From: a bacterium
Lineage (GTDB): Bacteria > JAMOTN01
Length of the DNA stretch: 39,514 nt
Reading direction: 5' to 3'
Assembly (NCBI GenBank): GCA_027062325.1
Contig: JAMOTN010000035.1
Span: 1-39,514, forward strand
A model generated the notes under the pieces. It had not been told where the DNA came from. It saw only the letters and a list, made by a program, of their open reading frames with translations, and made no database searches. Made by a program: the position numbers and the translations under genes. Positions 25,396-38,439 of this stretch are shown in pieces. Each line of letters opens with the position of its first letter. The first letter of the stretch is position 1.

Positions 25396-26679
25396 TTATG
25401 AAACTTTTATCTCCACAAATTCTTCGCCAACATTTTCAATAATTCCTTTGACGGGAGAGTGATAATTAACCCCGAGGTTATTGGGAGTATCAATTTTGGC
25501 AATCGGATCGTATTTTTCAACACTTTGGCCCTTCTGGACCAATACATTTGGTATTTTTCCAATGTGAGAATTTAAATATATGCGAAGCTTTATGCCGGAT
25601 GGAATGGAAATCTCTGTGTACTCAGGTACATTTGGAAGTTCAAAGTCGGCAAGGAGTCGAGATGCGGCGAATGATGATGCAACTCCTGTCCAATCTCTTT
25701 CGACTGCTTCAAGCTTATCTGGACGTCCAACTTTTCTCAACTCCTTTTTGAGTTCAAAATTTACGCGACTCGGTGATAGTCCAAGTGGACACACCAGAGT
25801 ACAAACGTTGCAATGACAGCAGTAAGAGGCTATCTTCAGCTCTTCTAGGGGAGCGTTGAAGGAGTACTTGCGCATTATGGAAGCAGGATCTATGGGATGT
25901 CCAAGCTGCCATCTTGGACATGCCAGGGTGCAATTGTTACAAGTTGCGCACGCAACGCGTGCTAGTTGCAGTATACTTTCTATACTTTGTGTCTTCATTT
26001 TGTAAATGAAAGAATCTTTTGGTGCGAAAATTAGAGCCGATGTGGTCTTTTTGGTAAATCCACTGGACTTCTCTCCCATTGCAGGACCACCATCTATGAC
26101 TAAGTCCGTGGGGAGATTGAGTTGAGAAGCAATTAATTCTATAGGTGTTCCAATAGGCAACTTTGAAATAAGAAGTTTCTTGGGAGCAATTATTGTGACG
26201 TATCTTTCGACAAAAGGCTTGTTATTACAGCAAGCTTGGTAAGCTAAATATGCTGTTGTCAAGTTTGTAACTACCACTCCAACGTCAATGGGCAATCCAC
26301 CTGCTGGTATTCGTTTGCCGGTTGCAAGAAAGGTTAAACACTGCTCATCTCCCACTGGATAACGATCAGGAAGTGTTGCAACCTTGGTGTTTAGATTTTT
26401 AACAAGGTGAATGTATTTGGATTTAATTGCAATTGTTACGGAGCGAAAGAGTTTTTTTAGCCAAGACATCACAGCTTTTAGTTCTTCGGAGTGTTTTTTT
26501 AAAAGCCATTTGTCAGATTGAAGAAACGGCTCGCATTCTGCTGCGTTTATAAGTAGATCCAGGTCAAAATTCCATTTGGCATAGGTTGGGAAACCTGCTC
26601 CTCCTGCTCCAACGATTCCATAATCTTTGAGACACGAAATAACAGCCCTTCTATCTATTCTACATCTTGAAGGCATCAC
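25396..26679 (-). CDS. PduS-like flavin/[4Fe-4S] oxidoreductase (RnfC/NuoF-like FMN domain, SLBB, two ferredoxin motifs, C-terminal barrel-sandwich hybrid)
   Basis: GIVGAGGAGFPT, INAAECEP, GGPAMG, CATCNNCTLACP and CCHCNVCTLVCP. The HIG...VQKGQSV...HSPVKG domain is C-terminal as in PduS, not N-terminal as in RnfC. Confidence 0.88.
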   Translation of the reverse strand: MMPSRCRIDRRAVISCLKDYGIVGAGGAGFPTYAKWNFDLDLLINAAECEPFLQSDKWLLKKHSEELKAVMSWLKKLFRSVTIAIKSKYIHLVKNLNTKVATLPDRYPVGDEQCLTFLATGKRIPAGGLPIDVGVVVTNLTTAYLAYQACCNNKPFVERYVTIIAPKKLLISKLPIGTPIELIASQLNLPTDLVIDGGPAMGEKSSGFTKKTTSALIFAPKDSFIYKMKTQSIESILQLARVACATCNNCTLACPRWQLGHPIDPASIMRKYSFNAPLEELKIASYCCHCNVCTLVCPLGLSPSRVNFELKKELRKVGRPDKLEAVERDWTGVASSFAASRLLADFELPNVPEYTEISIPSGIKLRIYLNSHIGKIPNVLVQKGQSVEKYDPIAKIDTPNNLGVNYHSPVKGIIENVGEEFVEIKVS

Positions 26680-26722
26680 TATCCCCTCTTTTGTTTGAGT
26701 ATGTGGCTTTAATTGGATAAGA

Positions 26723-27265
26723 TCACCAGTTTCTGGAAAGAAGTGGTTTTGCTGGGCGGGGAATTACCACAGTTTTTAGTATATCTTGAGTAGTTGATTT
26801 AGCAGCTTCTACAGCGGCTTTGCAGTCTGCTACATCTCCTGTAACGACAAAGAAAGAGCGACCACCCAGCCCACGGGCGATGCGCAGGTCAAGAATTGTG
26901 ATGTTTGCAGCTTTAGCGGCGCTATCTGCTGCAAGGAATGCAGAGACTATGTTCATTGTTTCAACTACTCCTATTGCTTTTATTTCTGAGTTGTTTCCAT
27001 ATAGTGCAGTTTCAACTTGTGGGTGAATTCTTGGAATTATTGTGGTAGCTATTGTGTAATTTTTGGCAGTTTCTTCGGCACTTTCTATTGCAGCTTTCAC
27101 CTCTGCGACATCCCCGAAGACTACAAAAACAAATTTCCCAGCACATATGGGCTGACTGAATAGAATTTTAACGTTTGCTGCTTTGTAAGCTGAGTCAAGG
27201 GCTTCTATACCGGCTGCGATTGAGATGGTCTCCACTATGCCAATTGCTTTGGGAGATTCGGCCAT
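26723..27265 (-). CDS. Tandem BMC-domain shell protein (BMC-T), PduT-like
   Basis: Two BMC domains (AIGIVET...KAANV...GDVAEVKAA; AIGVVET...KAANI...GDVADCKAA). PICAGKF carries the Cys equivalent to the Fe-S ligand of PduT. Confidence 0.92.
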   Translation of the reverse strand: MAESPKAIGIVETISIAAGIEALDSAYKAANVKILFSQPICAGKFVFVVFGDVAEVKAAIESAEETAKNYTIATTIIPRIHPQVETALYGNNSEIKAIGVVETMNIVSAFLAADSAAKAANITILDLRIARGLGGRSFFVVTGDVADCKAAVEAAKSTTQDILKTVVIPRPAKPLLSRNW

Positions 27266-28108
27266 TTACTCCACCTCTGTAGTATTTGAGTTTAGCTCAT
27301 TATAACATACAAAACTGCAGCAGTATGGGAATTCGCAAGTTGAGGCAATTTTAGTTGTAGGTTTGACTATGGCGCGTATTGGGAGTTCAACAACCTTTTC
27401 ATCAAATTTCCTTCGCCATTTAGCATAAGGTCGCATGCAGCCTATTATTACCGAAGTTTTTCCAAGTACCGATCTTGTTATTTCGAGTGCTTTTTCTACG
27501 GAAAGCGTTGGAATAAATCGCCCTGTATTGAAGTTGACAATAACAAATGGCAATTTGAGAGTGTTTAGTATGTTAAGTGCAGTTTCTAATTCGATGTCAG
27601 GATTAAAAAGTCCAAATGTGAAATGAAATGCGCAAAATGCCTTTAATTTTAATGATTTTGCCTTCTCCTCTACTAGTTTTTTTGATTTTTTGGCGAGGTA
27701 TATGATTGAATCCAGAGTTGGTTTGAAGTGGCCATTTGTGAGGAGAGACCATTCTTCTGAGAGTGGGAGGTCTATAGAGAAGCTCAAATTTGGTCTGAAT
27801 GTGGTTTGGGAAAGGGATGAGAAAAATTTTTCTATGTTTTGAAGCATGCGTTCTGTTAAAAAGCCGGGATGAACGTTTAGAAATTTGATCAGAGAGAGTT
27901 TTTCTGTTGGAAGTGATGAGATGGCTTTCCAGAATAATGTAAAGTCTACTGTTAGATCTTTATTTACGCCTCCTGTGACTAAAAGGCTTGATTCTGGTAT
28001 GAGATTTGATTGGCTGCCAAGATAGACACGTTTACAATGGCTACAATTTAAAAAACATGACGACGAGGTGTAGAAGTTTGTGTGTTTGTCAAGGCTTACA
28101 GTGATGAT
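27266..28108 (-). CDS. Radical SAM protein, LipS1-like (biotin synthase-related), probable ATC start
   Basis: The frame is open upstream of the ORF-track ATG (27847) to a TGA at 28117-28115. The extension encodes CFLNCSHC (CxxxCxxC), LLVTGG and LNVHPG. The C-terminal part has IGCMRP and PYCC. AAGGAG lies just upstream of ATC 28108. Confidence 0.8.
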   Translation of the reverse strand: MITVSLDKHTNFYTSSSCFLNCSHCKRVYLGSQSNLIPESSLLVTGGVNKDLTVDFTLFWKAISSLPTEKLSLIKFLNVHPGFLTERMLQNIEKFFSSLSQTTFRPNLSFSIDLPLSEEWSLLTNGHFKPTLDSIIYLAKKSKKLVEEKAKSLKLKAFCAFHFTFGLFNPDIELETALNILNTLKLPFVIVNFNTGRFIPTLSVEKALEITRSVLGKTSVIIGCMRPYAKWRRKFDEKVVELPIRAIVKPTTKIASTCEFPYCCSFVCYNELNSNTTEVE

Positions 28109-28147
28109 TTTAAATCACTCCTTTGCTAAAAATTGGTGCTTAAAGGT

Positions 28148-28450
28148 TTAAATTCCTAACTGTTCTTCTAACCACGATTTATATGTACCATGAAAACTGA
28201 CATTTATTGAGATGATAGCAGGTGTGGAATATGGGTGGTTAGCTTTTATGTACTCTATTATCTCCTCCGCCTTGGAGGTGTGTGTTTTTATAATACAGGC
28301 CCATTCTTTATCTTCGTTTATTTCACCCTGCCATTCGTATACGGAGTTTATTGGCCAGTAATTTACACATGCTGCCAGTCGATTTTCTACTAAGTGTTTG
28401 GCGGTTTGTTTTACACTTTCTTCATTGGGGAAGGTTGAGTAGATGAACAT
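28148..28450 (-). CDS. cutA: Divalent cation tolerance protein CutA
   Basis: STFPNEE...LVENRLAACVN...SVYEWQG...IKT...HPYSTPAII. Confidence 0.95.
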   Translation of the reverse strand: MFIYSTFPNEESVKQTAKHLVENRLAACVNYWPINSVYEWQGEINEDKEWACIIKTHTSKAEEIIEYIKANHPYSTPAIISINVSFHGTYKSWLEEQLGI

Positions 28451-28492
28451 TGTGTATCCCCCCTAAATTATTATGTTTGGATCTTTTGTATA

Positions 28493-28501
28493 ATTTTAAC
28501 A
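28493..28501 (-). promoter_or_regulatory. Candidate extended -10 (TGnTAAAAT) for the cutA/radical SAM/BMC-T/PduS operon
   Basis: The minus strand reads TGTTAAAAT about 40 nt upstream of the cutA ATG. The AT-rich context limits specificity. Confidence 0.4.
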
Positions 28502-28551
28502 CTAATATTTTTTTAAAAGTGTTTTAATTGTGAATAGATGGTTAGCTATTG

Positions 28552-28581
28552 TTGACGGTGTTTCTCTTGATCGTTTATGCT
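28552..28581 (+). promoter_or_regulatory. Candidate sigma70 promoter for the giant protein gene
   Basis: TTGACG, an 18-nt spacer, then TATGCT. Confidence 0.45.
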
Positions 28582-28620
28582 ATTTGAAGTGAAAGCCTCT
28601 GTGTAATAAGTGCGGTCTAG

Positions 28621-31600
28621 TTGGGGAGGATGAGGGAGTTAGTGCTGAAAGCAGGCCTGCTTGTGAGAGTTGGGATTTTGTTTTTGCTTATTTTTAGTTT
28701 GGGAGTTTATGGTGCTGTTTCGCCGGATGCTACGTCATTTTGGATAACTGCTCAATCTTTGCCCGGGGGACAAATAAAGATTCAGTGGATGTCTCTTACT
28801 ACGGATAGTGAGCCTTTGGGGTACAGACTTTTTTCAGGAGATGGAACAACTTTTCATCAGATTGCAAATATTACAGATGGCTCCACCGTTTATGTTGATA
28901 CTCCAATAGTTAATAATGATGGAGATGTTGTTTATTACTATATTGTTCCTTACGATGCTGAAAACACTGGTGGATATGCTGAGTATGGTTATCCTTATCA
29001 CTACGCAACGGCAGCTTGTGAACTTCACGGTCCTAGGATTGTTGCGACTGTTGAAATCCCCATGCAAGCTGAGCATTGGAGGCCAATAATTACTACAGTT
29101 GAGATAGAGGTTGTTGACGATTGGAATGATACGAATTATCGATACGATGATTATCCAATTTCACTGGAGTACTCTTTTAATGGAAGTTTTAACACTACTT
29201 TTATGGTTGATACAGGAAATACTGGTAGCGCTGCTGGTGGAAAGATCGTTAGGGCTTACCTTGATATGAGAACACTTGGAAATGGTGATTCTGTGGCTAT
29301 TTGGTTCAACGGTGTTGATTACGTTGGGAATGAGATAGAGAGTCAACTGAATCCACCTCCAACATATCTTGTGGATGACAAATGTTACTTTATCATAGAT
29401 ACCGATTTTGCGGCGATTACTTCCGCTAAGTACTACGATGAAAACAACAATGGAATGGTTGATGCGGGAGATAGAGTTGTAATTTTGATGGATGAAGCAG
29501 TCACTCCTACGATTGCTAATCCGGCACCAGCTGATTGTTTTGAATTACTTCCTTCGGGAACAGCCACTTTTGGAACGGGCGCTTCTATGACTATTACGAC
29601 TGGGGATTCCTCCACTACTTTTGAAATAACTTTGGGAGCGGGAGCTGTTTTGAATGTCTCTGGAGTTTACGTTCCCGGATCAACTAATGGGCCGACGGGA
29701 ATAAATGTAAGGCCAGGAGCACCGCTTCAGGATTCTACAAAACCTGATCCCAATCCAGCTGCTCCTATGGCGACGGCGAAGGATATATCGACGGATGCAG
29801 AAGAGGGACCTTATGTGACCAAAGCTTATTTTGTGGATCTAGATTCGAATGGAGTTGATGCGGGAGATCAACTGTTTGTAGTTTTTAATCAGAACATTCA
29901 GGTGAATGGCTCGCTTGGTCCTACGGCTTTTGACTTACCAGTTTATGGAGATACCTTTCAAATAGACAGCTATTATGTTAATGGGCAAACATTGGAGATA
30001 ACGGTTGCCGAACCTGCGAATTTAAAGGTTGCGGGGACTTACAACATTGGAATGAATATTGAAGGAAGTCCTTCTGGAATAAGGGTTAGTCCATCGATGC
30101 CGGCAGGCTTGATTACCAATCTTTTGGGATATGATGCTCAAGCAAGTAATCCAGTTGATATTGATTCAACAGATAGTGTTGCAGCGTATCCGATATTTGC
30201 AAGATTTTTAGATGCGGCAGGTGATGGGCCTTCTAAAGGAGATACGGTTGAGATAGGTTTTAGTGAGGCTGTCTATCCGCAAGCTGGAGCTAATGTAGGA
30301 GATTTTCTGCTTCAGGGTTATGGAGGATACACTTTTGGAGCAGGAGCTTACGTTACGCAGCATCAAACTCAGACTCTGGAGATAGTTTTGGGAGATGAGC
30401 CGTTTCTCGCTTTTGCAAATTTGAATGTGGAGGATGGTGGAATCAATGCTGTGAATGCTCTTGCTGTGAATTTAACTACTACGGGTGGAGCAAATTATGA
30501 AGATCTTGCTGGAAATCAATCTCAGCCTGCAGCTGCTGATGTAAGTGTGGTTAGTGGAGATACTACGGCTCCTCAACTTATTTCGGCAGTATTCAGAGAT
30601 TTGGATGGGAATGGGCCCGATGCAGGTGATGTGGTAATTCTTACTTTTTCAGAGAGGATTGCCTTGACTACCACTGTTACAGCGCCCACAGCTGCAGATT
30701 TTAATGTAATTAATGGAAATCTTGGAGCAAATCCCACATTTGCACTTGGACAAACTACCATTGAAATAACTTTGGATGCGGGTACTGTAATAAATCTATT
30801 TGGGGCTAATACTACGGAGATTGGCTTGGTAACCCCAAATAGTATAAGAGATACAAGCGGTAATGAGGCTGTGGGTACAGTTTACATCGCAAGCGATGAT
30901 TTTACGGGACCAATTTTGCAAAGCGCAAGGTTTTTCGACAATGTTAATACTCCGGGGGTTGGAGCAGGTGACACAATTGAGCTAGTTTTTGATGAGCCTG
31001 TTACGTTTACAGACGGTATCGATCCTGCAACGGTGTTTTACTTGACGTCGGGATCTTCTTTTGGAACAGGAGCTCAAATGCATGCTTCAACTGCTGTGAA
31101 TGTTGTTGAGATTGTGCTGGGAGATGGTGCCTCCATTCAAGTTATGGGAATTGCAGGAACTGATCCCGGAGCGAGTGGGATAAATGTTTTACCTTCACAA
31201 ACAGCTCTTACTGATGTGGCTGGAAATAGAGCTCAAACTTTGGCAGATTGGATTGATGTAACAGCAGGAAGCCCGCATGGAGCTACTTTGGAGGCTGCCT
31301 ATTTTGAGGATCTAGATGGAAATGGTCCTGACGAGGGAGACAAACTTTACTTTGTGTTCAGTGAGAATGTCGAGGCATACACAGATTTGGCTCAAGTTGA
31401 TTCTGCGGATTTTCTGGTGCATCAGGGAAGTTTGGGAACCTCTCCTCAATTTTCTTTGAATGGAAATACGGTTGAGGTGACATTGGGGGTTGGAGCTTAT
31501 CTTAACAACATATTAGCAGATGGTATGATAAATCCTACTGCAGCTTCTGTTGAGATGGCAAATCCTAATGATATTTACAACTTTTTGGGAGAAATGGCGG

Positions 31601-34600
31601 TAGGTGCAACTGATGTTGTCTCAATTGATGATGAAGGGCCTTACGTGATTAGAGTTATTTACAGAGATACCCATAATCCTCTTGGTTTGAGTGAAAGTGA
31701 CGAGGTTTACATATATTTCAACGAATACGTTACGTATGCGGTTGATACAACTACGGGACGGGCCAATTTAACAGAGGCGGATTTTGTAATAGAACCAACT
31801 GGTGCTCCTTATACGTTTGGAGTGGGGGCACAATTTTGGCCTGAAGGTGATAGCGCTATTAAGGTTGTTTTGGGGGAGAATCCCTCACTTGAAGTTTATG
31901 GAGAATACAATTCAACGTGTACTGCAGCAGGTTGTCCTGCAGGAGTGCGTCTTAACGATGCTGGTTTGAATATTACTGATCTTTCAGGAAATCCCCCCGC
32001 TGCTACGGGTGCGGTTGATGTGACTGTAGAAGATGGAGTGAATCCGAAACTTTTGCACGCAATTTTTTACGATGAGAATGGAAATTACGCTGTTGATTCT
32101 GGGGATAAAATAAAGCTTGTATTTGATGAGGCTGTGAAGATAATAAATGATTCAGTGGTTGATAGTGATTTTGTTATTCCTGTTGCAAATGACACAATAG
32201 GAAGTGGTGCTCAATTTTCTGCTGATGCCTCCTCTGAAGAGGTTGTATGGCTGACATTAGGAGCAGGCTGTAGGTTCAGGATCGATGGAGTTTTTAATCC
32301 TTCCTCTACTGCTGCTGGCTATCCGAGTGGTTTAGATGTGAGTACAGATAAAATAAGAGACTATGCTGGAAATCCTGCTTATGGTGTTGGCGTTGTTGAT
32401 ATTGAACCTTCTGATACAACGTCTCCTGTATTGATTGGATGCCGTTTTATTGATACCGATATGAACGGAGTTGATGAGGGGGATCAGCTGGTTCTGATAT
32501 TTGATGAACCGATAGAGATTTCGGGACTTGTTATCACAGACTTTGAGCTTCCAGTTACTGGAGATAGTTTTGGAGCAGGAGCTACTGCTGTGGCTGGGGC
32601 AACTAGTAGGGAGATATTGATAACGTTGGGAACAGGAGCGCATTTAAATCCGGAAGGTTACTTTGATCCGACCAGGATTTATGAAGGAGCACCTTCTGGA
32701 ATTGGTGTATTGACAACGGACCACATTAAAGATAAGTGGGGAAATTCTGTGGTGTTCAATGGATATGTTGATGTTGATAGTGGGCAGGGACCTATTTTGT
32801 TAACTGCTACCTTTGAAGATAGAGTCAGTGATGGTTGGGTTGGAACTGGAGATGTGATAATTCTTACTTTCAACGAACCTGTTAAAATAAATGGTAATTT
32901 TGACTTTTCAGGGGTCCAATTGCCTGTAAGTGGAGATAGTTTGGGATTAGAGCCAACCATTGAGGTTGGGCCGGAAAGCAACCAGATCACGATAGTTTTA
33001 GGAACGAATCCTGTAGTTACTGTGATGGGAAGTTATGAAAAAGCCTTAACTAATGCGGGATCTCCATCTGGAATAAAAATTTTACCGACTAGTAATGTGT
33101 CGGATATGGTGGATCAGCTCTCTATTGGAAATATAGCAGATATTGCAGGAAATGATGGGACAAGTCCCCAGCTTGTTACTGTGGAAATAGAGGATTTAGA
33201 TGGTAATGGTGTGGATGAAGGAGATAAGCTTTATCTCATGTTCAATGAACCTGTTATACCTACTTTTATTCACTCTAGCTACCTTGTTCTCCCTGTAAGT
33301 GCAGATACTCTTGGAAGTGGTTTTACGTGGATGCAGGATCCCACAAGTTACAGTGTTGTAATAATAAGGCTTGGGAGCTTACCAAGATTAAATCCAGATG
33401 GTGTTTTTGATGCGGCGAATACTACTGCTGGATCTCCTTCAGGACTTGGAGTTGTTCCCAATCTTCCTTTGTTTACCATAAATGACATATATGGAAATCC
33501 CCCAGAAGGTGGAACAGTTATTGATATTGCTTGGTATCCGTCGCCGGAGGCGGAGTTGATTGGGGCAACTTACGAAGATGTAGATGGTAATGGACTTGAT
33601 TCAGGAGATAAGTTAATTTTGACTTTTACTAGGGCTGTTACGGTTGATGTAGCCATACTTCCATCAGATGCTGTGGTTCTGCCGGTTACAGATGATACAC
33701 TTGGAGATGGAGCTGCTTGGGAAAGCTACTTAGGTTATAAGGCAACAGTTGCAATAATTTTAGGGGACAACCCTACTTTAACTGTTATGGGAGAGTTTGA
33801 TCCTGCAGTGGTTACTCCTGGATCTCCTTCTGGAATAGGAATAGCTTTGTCAAATGCATTTACCGCTTACAATGGGGCACATGCAACTTCGCCTGTTTAT
33901 GTGGATGTTACAGCTCCGTTTGAAAAGGGACCTAGGTTGATGCAGGCTCTATATTACGATTTGGATTTGAATGGACCTAGCAATGGTGATTTGTTGGTGT
34001 TGAAGTTTGATCAGGATGTGCAAATACCGGCTTTGCCAGCTGATCCCAATCAGTTGGCTACTTTGCCTGTTGCGATGGATAGCTTTGGAACTGGAGCTTG
34101 GGCTACGTATGGAGTAAATGTTGATACAGGCGAAAGGATTACATCAGAGGTGGCAATAGTTTTGGGAACTGGAGCAAAGCTTAATTTAGAAGGGACTTAT
34201 AATCCTGCTAATGTTACCGATCCTACAGCTCCTTCTGGTGCCAAGGTGGAGACTGTTAATAGTTTGTTGAGAAACTTTTACGGTAAAGGAGTTGAAACTT
34301 CGGAGGTTGATATAGAAGATGGACTACCTACAACTCTTATTAGGGCTCTGTGGGAAGATAGAGGAGACGTTGGAGTTAGCAGCCAGGACAGACTTATTCT
34401 GCGATTTAATAGGCCTGTAAATTTTGTTGGGAATCCGGATTATCCTAGTTTATATTTGACTTACTTGAACTTAAATCCAGGAGCAGGGGCAAGACTAGAG
34501 CCTTACGATCCCGCTAATCCATCGCCTGCTACTCAGTTTGTGTTAGTGTTCGGTGATGGGGCTTCTGCAAATATTCCTCCTATATATCCTTCAGATCCTT

Positions 34601-37600
34601 CGGCGAGTGCAATAGCTTTAAGAGAGGGACAGGTTGGATTTGTGGATGCGGCAAATGGAATCTATGTTGAGACTTACGCTACAGTGGACATTGTTGCTTC
34701 TGATTCGGTGGCTTTAATACTGACGTTTGCAGGATTCGTAGATAGAAATGGTGTTGCAGGAGCTCAAGAAGGAGACCAAGTTATACTGACTTTTAATAAG
34801 GCGGTATATCTGAATGGAGCTGGAATTAATGACTTTGATATTAAGCAGAGTTCTGATAGCTTTGGAGCTGCAACGATTACTGGCGGACCGAATGCAAATC
34901 AGTTGACGATAACATTGGGAGCTGGAGTAAGTATAGAAGTTGGTGTCACAGCTGTTGATGTATCCTCAGATGTTACTACAAATGGTCACATTAAAGATTA
35001 TGCTGGAAATAATGCAGTTCCCTCTGGTTATAAAGTTATAACTGATGCTGTTGGTCCTTACATAGTGAGAGCTATATATAATGATCCAGATGGAAATGGT
35101 GTAGGTGCAGGAGATACTTTAGAGATAGTGTTTTCTGAGGCTATTACAGCGACAGGTTTGAGCTCAAGCGATTTTATACTACCCGTTGCGGGAGATAGTC
35201 TTGGCTCTTCTCCAACTTTTAGTCAACCTGCTCCTGATAGACTTATAATAACTCTTGGTTTGGGAGCACATTTGACTGTTAAAGGGGTTTACTCGAATTT
35301 GAATCTTGGGCGTAGCAATCCGTCAGGTATAAAGTTGAATCCTGCAGGTGTTATAAGAGATGTTGCGGGAAATGCTCCGGTTGCAACAGGTGCAGTTGAC
35401 ATAGAGGGAGCTCCACCTGCGCTGCTTCTTCAATATGTGCATTTTGTTGATAAATTTTCAAACGGTGTTACACCGGGAGATGAGTTGATACTTGGTTTCA
35501 ATAAGCGCGTAATTCTTGACAGGGAGAATGTTTCAATTTCAGACTTTGTTATAGGGGGCGGAAATTTTGGAACTGGAGCAAGGGTTTTGCCGGGAGCAGA
35601 GAGCAATGAGGTAATAATACTGCTTGGGGAAAACGCAACTATTGAGAGCATAGCAGATCCTGCTGGTTCGTGGGTGGGAGTTGCGACTTCAGTTTTGACG
35701 AATTATCATCTTTACGATACAAACGGTAATCCTGCTCAGCCGGCAACTCGCGATATAGAGGTTATTGGAGATGCAGTTTCGCCACAGTTAATTGGGGCAA
35801 CTTATTACGATACCGCTGTTCCTTATGGTAGTGTGAATCAGGGAGATACACTTATCTTAACGTTTTCTGAGCCGGTTGAGATAAGAGCTCCTGTTGATAC
35901 TGCTCAGTTTTTCTTAGCGGTTACTGGAGACAGTCTTGGAGGAACAGGCTTTTCAGTAAGCCATGCGACAAAGGCTAATCAGATAGAGGTGACATTGGGA
36001 AGTGGATGTGCGCTTACTCCGGCTGGGACTTATGATACCACGACTCCTCCGCCGCAGCCTGCGGGGGCTCCATCGGGGATAAATCTTGCGATGCCTCTTA
36101 CATCTATTACAGATTATGCAGGAAACAGTGCTGTGCCCGCTGTCAATCCTGTTGACATTACAATGCTTGATGTTACTCCGCCGCACATTCTCTCAATGCG
36201 TGTTGTAAACTCTGATGGCAAGGAAAATGTTGTGAAGCCCAATGGTGATACTATTTCTTTTACTGTGCAGACAGATGATACCACTTTATCAACAGCAAGT
36301 TTTGTGGCTGACTTTTCACAGATTGGAGGTCCTGCGGCTTCGCATCCGGATACTTGCAATGCGGGAACTGCTACATGGAATAACATAAATACAGGGGCAC
36401 TCACTACAGCTACTGCTCCGATTATTGTTCGAGTAACGGATATGGCAGGGAATACTGCAACTGCTACCTTTACAGTTAATGTTATAAAAGCAGCATATTA
36501 TGTTAAGGGAGAAATTACCCCATCTTATGTGCCGCGCAACAGGAATGTTACGGTGGAGCTGAAATTGCGCCCACGCTTTGTTGATGAGAGTTATGGTATA
36601 GATTTGGTAAATGTACAACTGCCAAATGGTTATTCATGTTCTGATGTTACAAAGATAAGGGTTACAACTTATCAAGGAGAATGGACTGTCAAGACTTCAA
36701 TGCCTCTTGATTCAAATCAATATGAGGTGTTGATAAATACAGCAGGTAACATGATACAGTTTGTATTCTCTCAAGCTTTGAAGTGGCAGAATACTGATCA
36801 GTACACTATAAATTTTGAGATGCCGGTTCATACTAAGTATAATCCTGATATGCCTGATGGAACGCCTGTTGTTGTTAGTGTTGACAATACCGCTTTGAAT
36901 TCGGCTCTAAATGTAGAAGAAGAGTTCCCGGGTTCTCTTATATTACACACCGAGGGATTGGAGGTTAAGAAAGTATTGGCAAATAGTGTTATAGAGAGTA
37001 CGGGGTGGCGAATTTACTTTACTATTTTATTCAATATGATTCCTAACTTATCAAATTTACCAACTGTTCGAGTAAAATTGCAGAATGGAGTTGAGTTTAA
37101 ATTAAGAACTATTCAGTTTGCTGAGAAAACTTACAGTGGAAGTGTCTTTATTCCATTCTCTTATGCAGAAGGAGCTTCAACTTTTGAGTTGTGGATTGAG
37201 GGAGCGACTGAGCCTGATGGTTATCCAATGGCAAATTATGGGAGGGAGTTTAAACTTCCAGCAAGAGTTGTATCCATTATAGTTCCAGTTTATTCAGCAC
37301 CAAAGGAGTATTACCTGTATCTAAAATCTCCAGATGGAGTGCCTCAAGTTACGATGAGAACGCCTGCTTCTACATCTGTAGAACTCAATGTAAAAAATGT
37401 TGTATCTGATGTTTACCGAGCTTTGTTTGAAGTGGCAGAGACAGGACTTTACAGATTCAAAATCGTTGTTGGTACTCAAGAAATTTACGCTAACAACTAT
37501 CTTGTGTGCACAGGTGCAATAAGGGGTGGAAGCTCTAAATATGTGCCGGTGAGTGGCTTGGAATTGAATTTTAATGGAGTGTCATATCCTATTACAAATT

Positions 37601-38439
37601 TGAAGTTTAATGCTGTGGATAGTAAGCTTTTGCCTACAAGAGTTGAGGTTTGTGAAGATAGACTAGGAGATAGCAGGATTACCGAATTTTGGCACGTGAG
37701 TGGAGAGGTGAACTTGGTAGCCGATCAGAAATTTGGATTATGTGTGGCTTCGGGTGAAAGTTTGTTTTGGATGGGAAAGCACGTTAGTGGTGAAGGGGAT
37801 GTGGCAGTTGCGCTGGATGAGAAGGCACCACATGTTGAAGTTGAGAATTTTGAGGATAAGTTGGTTGTTCGAGTAGGGGATGATGTATCCGGAGTTGATG
37901 TGGTGAGGCTTACGGTAGGTAATAGTGAGTTTAGTAAAGAATTGAATGATGTTGAGCGATGGAGAACTGTTTTTCATATGGATACTCGTTCAGAACGAAC
38001 GAATGATACTTTGTTGGTTTCAGATGTTGGGGAGTTTTCTTTTGATGGGATGCTTCCCGGTTACTATGATGTAAAGTGGCAGGTTTGTGATGCTGCCGGA
38101 AATTGTAGTGTTGGTGTAAAGAGTATTTTGTGGCGTGGAGTGGATGATGCGAAAGTAATTTGTTATCCCAATCCTGTGACCTCTGATTATTTAAAGATAA
38201 AGTTGACAAGGTATGGATTGGATATAGAAAAAGCGAAAGTTGTGATTTATGATGCAGCAGGTGAGAAGGTTTGGAGCACTGAGGTTCAGTTTTACAACAA
38301 TGAAGAGGTTGTTGAGTGGAGGTTAGAAAGTCTTTGGGGATCAAAGGTGAAAAGAGGGGTTTACGTAGTTAAGGCTAAATTTTATTCAAGTACTGGGAAA
38401 GTGTTGACGCGTTACTTTAAGGTGTTTGTAGCAAGATGA
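28621..38439 (+). CDS. Giant secreted/surface protein: signal peptide, FN3-like domain, ~18 tandem acidic Ig-like repeats, C-terminal T9SS-CTD/FlgD-Ig-like domain
   Basis: Uninterrupted 3272-aa ORF; the likely start is GTG 28642 after GAGGGAG. Signal peptide ending ...LGVYG/A. Repeated P-x-L-x-x-A-x-F-x-DxDxNG-x-D-x-GD...DxAGN units. C-terminal CYPNPV...IYDAAGEKV...W...GVYVV. Confidence 0.92.
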   Translation: MGRMRELVLKAGLLVRVGILFLLIFSLGVYGAVSPDATSFWITAQSLPGGQIKIQWMSLTTDSEPLGYRLFSGDGTTFHQIANITDGSTVYVDTPIVNNDGDVVYYYIVPYDAENTGGYAEYGYPYHYATAACELHGPRIVATVEIPMQAEHWRPIITTVEIEVVDDWNDTNYRYDDYPISLEYSFNGSFNTTFMVDTGNTGSAAGGKIVRAYLDMRTLGNGDSVAIWFNGVDYVGNEIESQLNPPPTYLVDDKCYFIIDTDFAAITSAKYYDENNNGMVDAGDRVVILMDEAVTPTIANPAPADCFELLPSGTATFGTGASMTITTGDSSTTFEITLGAGAVLNVSGVYVPGSTNGPTGINVRPGAPLQDSTKPDPNPAAPMATAKDISTDAEEGPYVTKAYFVDLDSNGVDAGDQLFVVFNQNIQVNGSLGPTAFDLPVYGDTFQIDSYYVNGQTLEITVAEPANLKVAGTYNIGMNIEGSPSGIRVSPSMPAGLITNLLGYDAQASNPVDIDSTDSVAAYPIFARFLDAAGDGPSKGDTVEIGFSEAVYPQAGANVGDFLLQGYGGYTFGAGAYVTQHQTQTLEIVLGDEPFLAFANLNVEDGGINAVNALAVNLTTTGGANYEDLAGNQSQPAAADVSVVSGDTTAPQLISAVFRDLDGNGPDAGDVVILTFSERIALTTTVTAPTAADFNVINGNLGANPTFALGQTTIEITLDAGTVINLFGANTTEIGLVTPNSIRDTSGNEAVGTVYIASDDFTGPILQSARFFDNVNTPGVGAGDTIELVFDEPVTFTDGIDPATVFYLTSGSSFGTGAQMHASTAVNVVEIVLGDGASIQVMGIAGTDPGASGINVLPSQTALTDVAGNRAQTLADWIDVTAGSPHGATLEAAYFEDLDGNGPDEGDKLYFVFSENVEAYTDLAQVDSADFLVHQGSLGTSPQFSLNGNTVEVTLGVGAYLNNILADGMINPTAASVEMANPNDIYNFLGEMAVGATDVVSIDDEGPYVIRVIYRDTHNPLGLSESDEVYIYFNEYVTYAVDTTTGRANLTEADFVIEPTGAPYTFGVGAQFWPEGDSAIKVVLGENPSLEVYGEYNSTCTAAGCPAGVRLNDAGLNITDLSGNPPAATGAVDVTVEDGVNPKLLHAIFYDENGNYAVDSGDKIKLVFDEAVKIINDSVVDSDFVIPVANDTIGSGAQFSADASSEEVVWLTLGAGCRFRIDGVFNPSSTAAGYPSGLDVSTDKIRDYAGNPAYGVGVVDIEPSDTTSPVLIGCRFIDTDMNGVDEGDQLVLIFDEPIEISGLVITDFELPVTGDSFGAGATAVAGATSREILITLGTGAHLNPEGYFDPTRIYEGAPSGIGVLTTDHIKDKWGNSVVFNGYVDVDSGQGPILLTATFEDRVSDGWVGTGDVIILTFNEPVKINGNFDFSGVQLPVSGDSLGLEPTIEVGPESNQITIVLGTNPVVTVMGSYEKALTNAGSPSGIKILPTSNVSDMVDQLSIGNIADIAGNDGTSPQLVTVEIEDLDGNGVDEGDKLYLMFNEPVIPTFIHSSYLVLPVSADTLGSGFTWMQDPTSYSVVIIRLGSLPRLNPDGVFDAANTTAGSPSGLGVVPNLPLFTINDIYGNPPEGGTVIDIAWYPSPEAELIGATYEDVDGNGLDSGDKLILTFTRAVTVDVAILPSDAVVLPVTDDTLGDGAAWESYLGYKATVAIILGDNPTLTVMGEFDPAVVTPGSPSGIGIALSNAFTAYNGAHATSPVYVDVTAPFEKGPRLMQALYYDLDLNGPSNGDLLVLKFDQDVQIPALPADPNQLATLPVAMDSFGTGAWATYGVNVDTGERITSEVAIVLGTGAKLNLEGTYNPANVTDPTAPSGAKVETVNSLLRNFYGKGVETSEVDIEDGLPTTLIRALWEDRGDVGVSSQDRLILRFNRPVNFVGNPDYPSLYLTYLNLNPGAGARLEPYDPANPSPATQFVLVFGDGASANIPPIYPSDPSASAIALREGQVGFVDAANGIYVETYATVDIVASDSVALILTFAGFVDRNGVAGAQEGDQVILTFNKAVYLNGAGINDFDIKQSSDSFGAATITGGPNANQLTITLGAGVSIEVGVTAVDVSSDVTTNGHIKDYAGNNAVPSGYKVITDAVGPYIVRAIYNDPDGNGVGAGDTLEIVFSEAITATGLSSSDFILPVAGDSLGSSPTFSQPAPDRLIITLGLGAHLTVKGVYSNLNLGRSNPSGIKLNPAGVIRDVAGNAPVATGAVDIEGAPPALLLQYVHFVDKFSNGVTPGDELILGFNKRVILDRENVSISDFVIGGGNFGTGARVLPGAESNEVIILLGENATIESIADPAGSWVGVATSVLTNYHLYDTNGNPAQPATRDIEVIGDAVSPQLIGATYYDTAVPYGSVNQGDTLILTFSEPVEIRAPVDTAQFFLAVTGDSLGGTGFSVSHATKANQIEVTLGSGCALTPAGTYDTTTPPPQPAGAPSGINLAMPLTSITDYAGNSAVPAVNPVDITMLDVTPPHILSMRVVNSDGKENVVKPNGDTISFTVQTDDTTLSTASFVADFSQIGGPAASHPDTCNAGTATWNNINTGALTTATAPIIVRVTDMAGNTATATFTVNVIKAAYYVKGEITPSYVPRNRNVTVELKLRPRFVDESYGIDLVNVQLPNGYSCSDVTKIRVTTYQGEWTVKTSMPLDSNQYEVLINTAGNMIQFVFSQALKWQNTDQYTINFEMPVHTKYNPDMPDGTPVVVSVDNTALNSALNVEEEFPGSLILHTEGLEVKKVLANSVIESTGWRIYFTILFNMIPNLSNLPTVRVKLQNGVEFKLRTIQFAEKTYSGSVFIPFSYAEGASTFELWIEGATEPDGYPMANYGREFKLPARVVSIIVPVYSAPKEYYLYLKSPDGVPQVTMRTPASTSVELNVKNVVSDVYRALFEVAETGLYRFKIVVGTQEIYANNYLVCTGAIRGGSSKYVPVSGLELNFNGVSYPITNLKFNAVDSKLLPTRVEVCEDRLGDSRITEFWHVSGEVNLVADQKFGLCVASGESLFWMGKHVSGEGDVAVALDEKAPHVEVENFEDKLVVRVGDDVSGVDVVRLTVGNSEFSKELNDVERWRTVFHMDTRSERTNDTLLVSDVGEFSFDGMLPGYYDVKWQVCDAAGNCSVGVKSILWRGVDDAKVICYPNPVTSDYLKIKLTRYGLDIEKAKVVIYDAAGEKVWSTEVQFYNNEEVVEWRLESLWGSKVKRGVYVVKAKFYSSTGKVLTRYFKVFVAR
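29404..36170 (+). repeat. Array of 18 degenerate ~125-aa protein repeats inside the giant gene
   Basis: Counted by eye from the recurring [AV]x[FY]xD...GDx(5)F motif, running from AKYYDENNNGMVDAGD to ATYYDTAVPYGSVNQGD. The repeats are diverged at the DNA level. Confidence 0.85.

Follow-up and report, generated by a model that had tools for sequence, protein, structure and literature searches.

A 39,514-nucleotide stretch of bacterial DNA (contig JAMOTN010000035.1 of assembly GCA_027062325.1), referred to here as the window, carries four co-oriented minus-strand genes between positions 28450 and 25396. These encode a CutA1-family protein, a radical S-adenosylmethionine (SAM) protein resembling LipS1 of the LipS1/LipS2 lipoyl synthase, a PduT-type bacterial microcompartment (BMC) shell protein, and a PduS-type flavoprotein. 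At a probability of roughly 55%, cutA, the lipS1-like gene, the BMC-T gene, and the pduS-like gene belong to a single operon serving two known functions that are separate from each other, lipoylation and microcompartment redox chemistry. This reading is favored because the parts are known or divergent members of families with roles that need no connection, and because the other lipoate genes of the genome are scattered and the exact triad of radical SAM, BMC-T, and PduS-type genes is unique.

The LipS1-like gene occupies 27266..28108 on the minus strand, counted as 280 codons from an ATC, and its product harbors the motifs C18-x3-C22-x2-C25, G223-C224-M225-R226, and C263-C264. The sole NCBIfam match of the protein is LipS1 (NF053742), with an E-value of 3.3e-20 and 72.8 bits over two stretches, which falls short of the curated cut-off of 230 bits. 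No Pfam family is matched even at an E-value of 10, and a sequence search of the PDB returns no match. Only 19 matches at E ≤ 0.001 come from a HMMER search that covered 1.84 billion representative proteins. One of them, P0002, is the public annotation of the window gene itself, and a single one is a close relative, P0003 (261 amino acids, ~42% identity), which reaches 138.6 bits on the LipS1 model. The remaining matches are 250–305 amino acids long; eight were scanned on the same model, seven scoring 228–282 bits and one 166 bits. The longer P0008 (607 amino acids) is matched by the LipS1-like query at residues 120–251 and by Pfam Radical_SAM at 308–469, and it may be a LipS1-LipS2 fusion. 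A pattern search of genome and metagenome contigs with the alignment of the window protein and P0003 gives no match. P0003 is encoded on a contig of 223,947 bases, a length found for none of the 120 top-listed PduS matches (of 4048) or the 120 top-listed BMC-T matches (of 382).

An alignment of 18 LipS1 sequences has C18, C22, C25, H80, H162, G223-C224-M225, P227, and C263-C264 as invariant positions, and all seven cluster-ligand residues are kept in the window protein. According to PMC9585515, the Thermococcus kodakarensis LipS1 requires C230, C276, and C277, as established by mutagenesis, and H159 is fully conserved. The counterparts in the window protein are C224 (of GCMR), C263-C264, and H162, which do not vary among proteins scoring above or just below the LipS1 cut-off; this correspondence is read from an alignment that does not include the T. 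kodakarensis sequence itself. In a maximum-likelihood tree of 24 rows, rooted on the LipS2-like and HydE proteins of the same genome, the split between the LipS1 rows and the outgroup has support of 98/95. P0003 is the sister of the window protein (100/99), the two share a long stem (1.86), and together they nest inside LipS1, beside P0014, P0006, and P0005; the rows are matches to the LipS1-like query alone, and the bootstrap is unconverged. Two insertions are unique to the window protein, which also shares derived motifs of its own with P0003. The AlphaFold2 model (pLDDT 76.9, pTM 0.79) is a barrel of alternating strands and helices, for which Foldseek gives weak matches only, the top ones being radical SAM barrels (HydG, 4rtb; E = 2.2e-4, TM 0.46). 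Judged by these sequence features, the protein is best described as the fast-evolving LipS1 of its lineage.

The two genes that follow encode a BMC-T of the PduT, or BMC-T^SE, type and a NADH dehydrogenase of the PduS, or MNdh, type. The BMC-T gene (26723..27265, minus strand) specifies 180 amino acids with the Pfam BMC domain in two stretches (E = 1e-42) and a pore cysteine, Cys41, in the sequence CAGKF. The protein scores 125.6 bits against TIGR02526 (eut_PduT; cut-off 250.3), and its best solved relatives are PduT-type trimers, namely, 3nwg (E = 1.4e-35), 3pac, and 3n79; Cys41 (ICAGKF) is aligned to the pore cysteine of 3nwg and 3pac. A homologue search gives 382 matches. The pore cysteine is kept in 41 of 43 aligned homologues and C-A-G-K in 8 of the 43, and an 80% identical BMC-T (P0142) is encoded on an 840-base contig. 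The window motif fits the wider pore consensus C-P/S/A-G-K/R/S-Y/F (PMC6325248), but its second position misses the stricter CP(G/S)K of PMC11626177.

The flavoprotein gene (25396..26679, minus strand) specifies 427 amino acids from a GTG, or 426 from an alternative ATG at 26676, with the domains Complex1_51K (E = 5.2e-27), Fer4_17, and RnfC_N. The product contains GAGGAGFPT as well as two CxxCxxCxxxCP motifs. Its domain set is the same as in 4048 PduS-family proteins (E ≤ 1e-10), among which the best non-self identity is 36–37%. The BMC-T and PduS-type genes are the sole members of their kinds found in the genome. Six of the seven variant sites that distinguish them from those of a related strain are synonymous, so both genes appear to be live.

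The first-pass annotation of this DNA had described four co-oriented genes with an abutting stop and start codon and otherwise short gaps, and the coordinates agree: the TAA of the radical SAM gene (27268-27266) directly abuts the ATG of the BMC-T gene (27265), with gaps of 39 nt between cutA and the radical SAM gene and 43 nt between the BMC-T and PduS-like genes. The motifs that it listed, namely, CxxxCxxC, GCMR, and CC in the radical SAM protein, the pore cysteine in the BMC-T, and flavin mononucleotide (FMN) and two 4Fe-4S motifs in the flavoprotein, are present in the translations and alignments. Its family assignments also hold, for the LipS1-like protein by the sole NCBIfam match, the retained ligands, and the nesting in the LipS1 tree, and for the PduT-type BMC-T and PduS-type flavoprotein by their domains and solved relatives.

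The PduS/PduT pair already has a published role of its own, that of recycling NAD+ as the MNdh/BMC-T^SE module, as set out by Sutter et al. 2024 (PMC11626177). In that paper, the pair is renamed and reported from 2,172 loci of many microcompartment types, with the two genes adjacent in 97% of them. MNdh is proposed to oxidize luminal NADH and to send the electrons out through the pore cluster of BMC-T^SE; the measured potentials of the Fe–S clusters are −147, −217, and −349 mV. The authors describe the acceptor outside the shell as unknown and report that no specific protein co-occurs with the pair across the 2,172 loci.

Partners for a LipS1 are encoded elsewhere in the genome. GcvH (171.5 bits) adjoins GcvT, GcvPA, and GcvPB, all above their cut-offs; a protein with an LplA/B catalytic domain is encoded on contig C61 and BirA on C19. 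The LipS2-like gene on contig C62 encodes 338 amino acids, and its sole NCBIfam match is LipS2, at 197.5 bits versus a cut-off of 270. There are 18 Radical_SAM matches in the genome, and no LipA is found among the 10 covered by the family scan; the other eight (189, 244, or 436–587 amino acids) misfit the size of LipA. No second LipS1 candidate is found in the genome. The lipoate genes are mutually unlinked, the LipS2-like gene being flanked by pyruvate:ferredoxin oxidoreductase genes and by a PadR / NifB-like / MinD-ferredoxin group. The latter group (L033 6939-9672), divergent from the LipS2-like gene, consists of PadR, a small Nitro_FeMo-Co (NifB/NifX-like) protein, and a 662-amino acid MinD/ParA-type ATPase with a 4Fe-4S dicluster; from its composition it looks Fe–S related.

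Shell genes were sought genome-wide with PF00936 and PF03319. A BMC-H, a BMC-P, and an aldehyde dehydrogenase (AldDH) are encoded together on contig C76; RpiB (PF02502), two BMC-P, and a DeoC aldolase (PF01791) follow each other in a row on C4, so that the BMC-P on C76 is the third of the three in the genome, and PTAC is on C53. AldDH and the shell genes share the genome, but not the locus, with the window BMC-T/PduS pair. Microcompartments of the sugar-phosphate utilization (SPU) type are characterized by DeoC and RpiB, a BMC-P triplet, and at least one BMC-T^s, and a PduS homologue occurs in all SPU subtypes except SPU6 (PMC8217296, PMC11585597). The window pair is thus a satellite of a scattered SPU microcompartment rather than shell-free: BMC-H, three BMC-P, AldDH, DeoC, RpiB, and PTAC are spread over at least four other contigs, and the SPU locus as a whole falls into five pieces or more (among them on contigs C4, C35, C53, and C76). 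Among the partners that the first-pass annotation had proposed to look for, the genome has LipS2-like, LplA-like, GcvH, BMC-H, and BMC-P proteins, and from its pair of possibilities, shell-free or microcompartment satellite, the second holds and the first does not.

Several further observations bear on this organelle and its host. Directly downstream of DeoC on C4 (L010 470-2236), a 588-amino acid protein with a weak AFOR_N match (E = 5.2e-7) may be an unrecognized organelle enzyme. The SPU gene set is contiguous in Ca. Muiribacterium, including an MNdh and BMC-T of its own. The BMC-H proteins of the window genome (L009 8934-9254) and Ca. Muiribacterium (L070 8855-9142) share 83% identity; other organelle proteins common to the two are 34–55% identical. 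All 400 non-self genomes compared are related only at the level of the same domain, and the window genome therefore appears alone at the phylum level among the species compared. The stretch is present in runs labelled hydrothermal vent metagenome, X1, which may be its source, and X2 (0.49 of words for X2); no RNA run is among those listed for it.

With two functions in one operon, the LipS1-like protein would work with the LipS2-like protein and the LplA-like ligase in lipoylation. MNdh would oxidize luminal NADH produced by the aldehyde dehydrogenase, and from its FMN the electrons would travel by way of two 4Fe-4S clusters to the cluster in the pore of the BMC-T trimer and then leave the shell. 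These catalytic roles are assigned from the characterized families. The shared operon would be incidental or only regulatory, the lipoylation and microcompartment redox parts being otherwise separate.

LipS1 loci were gathered from four sources; with five duplicates removed, 74 different loci remain, for many of which the flanks extend no further than 1.5 kb. The sources are genome contigs (L037-L039 plus L012), metagenome contigs (21 non-self, 12 with at least 1 kb on both sides), the best-scoring 30 of 50 matched places in the Ca. Muiribacterium phylum, and a broad sample consisting of all 24 matched places among the 400 non-self genomes. A four-sequence LipS1 alignment served for L037-L039 and for the metagenome contigs, and the locus of P0003 lies outside the 74. 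PduS, a tandem BMC-T, or CutA is found beside LipS1 at none of these 74 other loci; conservation of the triad across genomes, which the first-pass annotation had proposed to check, is therefore not seen among them. The first-pass annotation also knew of no description of the combination. No description of a LipS1–microcompartment linkage was found in the literature, supplementary locus tables not being covered, and the main paper on the LipS1/S2 pathway makes no mention of microcompartments (PMC10332631). However, PduS/PduT have already been proposed in the literature to supply radical SAM enzymes, namely, glycyl-radical activases (PMC6325248).

At four of the 74 loci (L037, L055, L076, and L098), all in Muiribacteria, a BMC-domain gene lies directly upstream of lipS1-lipS2. 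In L037, it overlaps the start of lipS1 by 8 nt, and the LipS1 and LipS2 encoded there score 249.2 and 289.5 bits, both above their cut-offs. In its three unmasked copies, the BMC protein is 263–308 amino acids long; it consists of a BMC domain at the N-terminus, a Glu/Lys-rich linker, and a C-terminus, CNYICALCD[DE][LI][ED]CP[DE]RRE, that is strictly conserved in these copies and resembles the tetracysteine extension of PduK (described in PMC6325248). Synteny among the four loci extends for ~17 kb and takes in flagellar rod and sensor kinase genes, and they are therefore counted as one evolutionary event. BMC domains occur in 78 of the 87 genomes of the Ca. Muiribacterium phylum and LipS1 in 49, and a shell gene within 1.5 kb is absent at 27 of the 30 LipS1 loci examined in that phylum. 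The full gene string (L037 8857-11693; L055 2970-5873; L076; L098) reads acylphosphatase, BMC-domain gene, lipS1, lipS2. A small protein of ~90–100 amino acids is encoded immediately upstream of the shell/lipS1 pair in each lineage, CutA1 in the window and acylphosphatase in Muiribacteria.

The stop-to-stop frame of the radical SAM gene spans 28114-27266 (282 codons), and its first 89 codons include no ATG, GTG, or TTG. The near-cognate starts are ATC at 28108 and 28105 alone, 9 and 12 nt after AAGGAG, a ribosome-binding-like site read directly from the sequence (28118..28123, minus strand). The alignment with P0003 extends to the very beginning of the frame, up to the preceding stop codon, and initiation at ATC is likely. 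Work in E. coli has found initiation at ATC to be weak. Such a start would give a low level of the LipS1-like protein, which would fit an enzyme needed in traces, and the genes downstream, with ribosome-binding sites of their own, would escape this low level. In public protein collections, the gene is present only as P0002, 193 amino acids from an internal ATG (27266-27847), which bears no Pfam or family label because the product of the internal ATG lacks CxxxCxxC. A 267-base contig of an independent run (X3) is identical to the window over 27979-28245, and the missing start is therefore no assembly slip of this record; over 27266-27903 (638 nt), the related strain X2 has no changes. The gene might instead be dying, its start codon lost and only the downstream BMC-T and MNdh genes functional. 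The absence of a canonical start, the 193-amino acid remnant that gene callers yield, and the very low score for the LipS1 family would all fit. This explanation is nonetheless improbable, given that the 282-codon frame stays open in a region of 38–40% G+C, AAGGAG is in place 9 nt 5′ of ATC, all seven cluster-ligand residues are kept, and the N-terminal part aligns with P0003 up to the stop that precedes the frame. Moreover, no other LipS1 candidate is found in the genome, which has kept LipS2, GcvH, and the ligase, and the 638 nt compared show no differences in strain X2.

Functional coupling, with the Fe–S shell protein assisting LipS1 on the outside of the microcompartment shell, is a serious but on balance unlikely alternative. 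The pore cluster of BMC-T^SE, fed by MNdh from luminal NADH, could be the reductant for the radical SAM cluster of LipS1, or it could be the donor that rebuilds the sacrificial auxiliary cluster; of these two speculative variants, the second, donation by a labile three-cysteine pore cluster, has more appeal. The corresponding role toward LipS1/LipS2 in Muiribacteria would fall to the tethered Cys4 tail of the PduK-like BMC-H. Coupling would make sense of the abutting lipS1-like and BMC-T genes, of the Cys4-tailed BMC gene that stands directly upstream of lipS1-lipS2 (with its overlap in L037), and of the fact that the two lineages are unrelated and both carry SPU-type microcompartments. A client for the pore cluster would also suit the acceptor that PMC11626177 states as unknown, the absence of LipT from approximately half of the bacteria with LipS1/S2 (PMC10332631) and of any LipT-like match from the window genome, and the published hypothesis that PduS/PduT feed a radical SAM activase (PMC6325248). 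The unusually fast evolution of a LipS1-like protein that yet keeps its ligands points the same way. On the other side, there are only two independent juxtapositions, the Muiribacteria loci counting once, and 27 of 30 LipS1 loci lack a nearby shell gene although BMC genes are present in 78 of the 87 genomes of the phylum concerned. The MNdh/BMC-T pair of Muiribacterium sits in the main locus, away from lipS1, and the electron demand of lipoyl synthesis would be far too small for it to take up the electrons of a catabolic organelle. A potential of about −450 mV is usually needed for radical SAM clusters, and the measured potentials of the MNdh/BMC-T^SE clusters, −147, −217, and −349 mV, are well above this. 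A complex prediction for the LipS1-like protein with the BMC-T trimer scores 0.01 (mark 0.32) and bears neither way. The broader claim that Fe–S shell proteins are dedicated service partners of LipS1/LipS2, passing on NADH-derived electrons or a replacement 4Fe-4S cluster, is likewise unlikely. Least probable is that the radical SAM enzyme has left lipoyl synthesis for a substrate that is encapsulated or is itself a part of the microcompartment, and that inside the shell MNdh reduces the enzyme directly, as PduS serves PduO. The long stem shared with P0003 and its derived motifs, the two unique insertions, and the operon partners would be expected of such an enzyme. However, the genome would then keep a LipS2-like protein, GcvH, and a ligase without LipS1 or LipA, all of the LipS1-specific ligands are retained, and no encapsulation-peptide-like extension is evident, although no formal test was made.

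An operon of two separate functions remains the preferred account, and several points weigh against it. The genome record (1.65 Mb in 81 contigs) is 83.9% complete, and this incompleteness is counted here. No LipT-like flavoprotein is found in the genome, where the best match to the geranylgeranyl-reductase family, to which we take LipT to belong, reaches 32.5 bits versus a cut-off of 158.8. The first 89 codons lack a usual start, and the abutment of the lipS1-like stop and BMC-T start suggests coupled expression. The LipS1 score is a third of the cut-off while other housekeeping proteins of the genome pass theirs, and the constraints on the LipS1-like protein have therefore changed. Finally, an independent second lineage packs an Fe–S-type BMC gene against lipS1-lipS2, which is unexpected under pure chance.

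The first gene of the unit, cutA (28148..28450, minus strand), encodes 100 amino acids of the CutA1 family (Pfam CutA1, E = 2.8e-32) and scores 117.3 bits against NCBIfam CutA (cut-off 120). It shares its reading frame with the radical SAM gene; between the two lie TAA (28150-28148), ten sense codons, and TGA (28117-28115). Read-through of cutA into the radical SAM frame is ruled out because these two stops intervene. Upstream, the unit is bordered by a divergent open reading frame of 3272 codons and downstream by a convergent one for a small membrane protein. The divergent intergenic region (28451..28620) between cutA and the plus-strand frame is a likely promoter region, with two promoter-like minus-strand matches at 28534-28507 and 28499-28470. 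Across the whole region, promoter-like matches are at chance level (10 versus 9.6 expected), as are those of the terminator scan, and co-transcription of the four genes is thus inferred from spacing only. No Rfam family is matched in the window. The 3272-codon frame (28621-38439, plus strand) is a single one with a signal-like N-terminus and dozens of ~100-amino acid repeats rich in DxDGNG...GD, and its product looks like a giant surface or adhesin-like protein.

Two questions meet at this locus, namely, what accepts electrons outside BMC-T^SE, a question left by PMC11626177, and how LipS1/S2 is reduced or re-clustered in the approximately half of such bacteria that lack LipT (PMC10332631). 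If true, the service-partner proposal would identify a specific client in the cytosol for the pore cluster of a shell, the first of its kind, and would provide a LipT-independent way to drive LipS1/S2. Should the gene linkage of the two unrelated lineages stem from a true hand-off, both could be put to the test with four or five recombinant proteins. Otherwise, the locus still offers a clear-cut case of an MNdh/BMC-T^SE pair in satellite position to a scattered SPU organelle, an extreme LipS1 sequence missed by current models and gene callers, and a likely ATC-initiated gene.

Each part of the unit has a counterpart among known systems. The window gene resembles the LipS1/LipS2 lipoyl synthase of T. 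kodakarensis and the bacterial sLpl(AB)-LipS1/S2-LipT system in its CX3CX2C motif, GCMR cysteine, C-terminal CC, and histidine, and its genome provides a LipS2-like partner, an LplA-type ligase, and GcvH, with no LipA found. It differs in its score (72.8 versus 230 bits), its long branch with P0003 as the single known relative, its lack of a canonical start, its microcompartment neighbors, and its separation from lipS2 and lpl, and no lipT-like gene is found. The BMC-T/PduS pair is like the MNdh/BMC-T^SE module in its domains, adjacency, and pore cysteine and in the AldDH and full shell set of the genome; in contrast, its satellite position, CAGK motif, and operon partners, cutA and the LipS1-like gene, set it apart. 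Described SPU loci (PMC8217296, PMC11585597) likewise have DeoC/RpiB by shell genes, a BMC-P triplet, AldDH, PTAC, a PduS homologue, and a BMC-T^s, whereas the set of the window genome is dispersed.

The Muiribacteria protein shares its N-terminal BMC domain and C-terminal Cys4 motif with PduK-type BMC-H but has a long Glu/Lys-rich linker and a satellite locus with acyP, lipS1, and lipS2 rather than a PDU locus. A precedent for the operon as a whole is PduS/PduT with a glycyl-radical activase (Ferlez et al. 2019, PMC6325248), in which a radical SAM gene is also encoded with PduS/PduT and the use of NADH-derived electrons for SAM cleavage has been hypothesized. In that case, the radical SAM enzyme activates the signature enzyme of the organelle, whereas the window gene would encode a sulfur-inserting LipS1 with a cytosolic housekeeping substrate.

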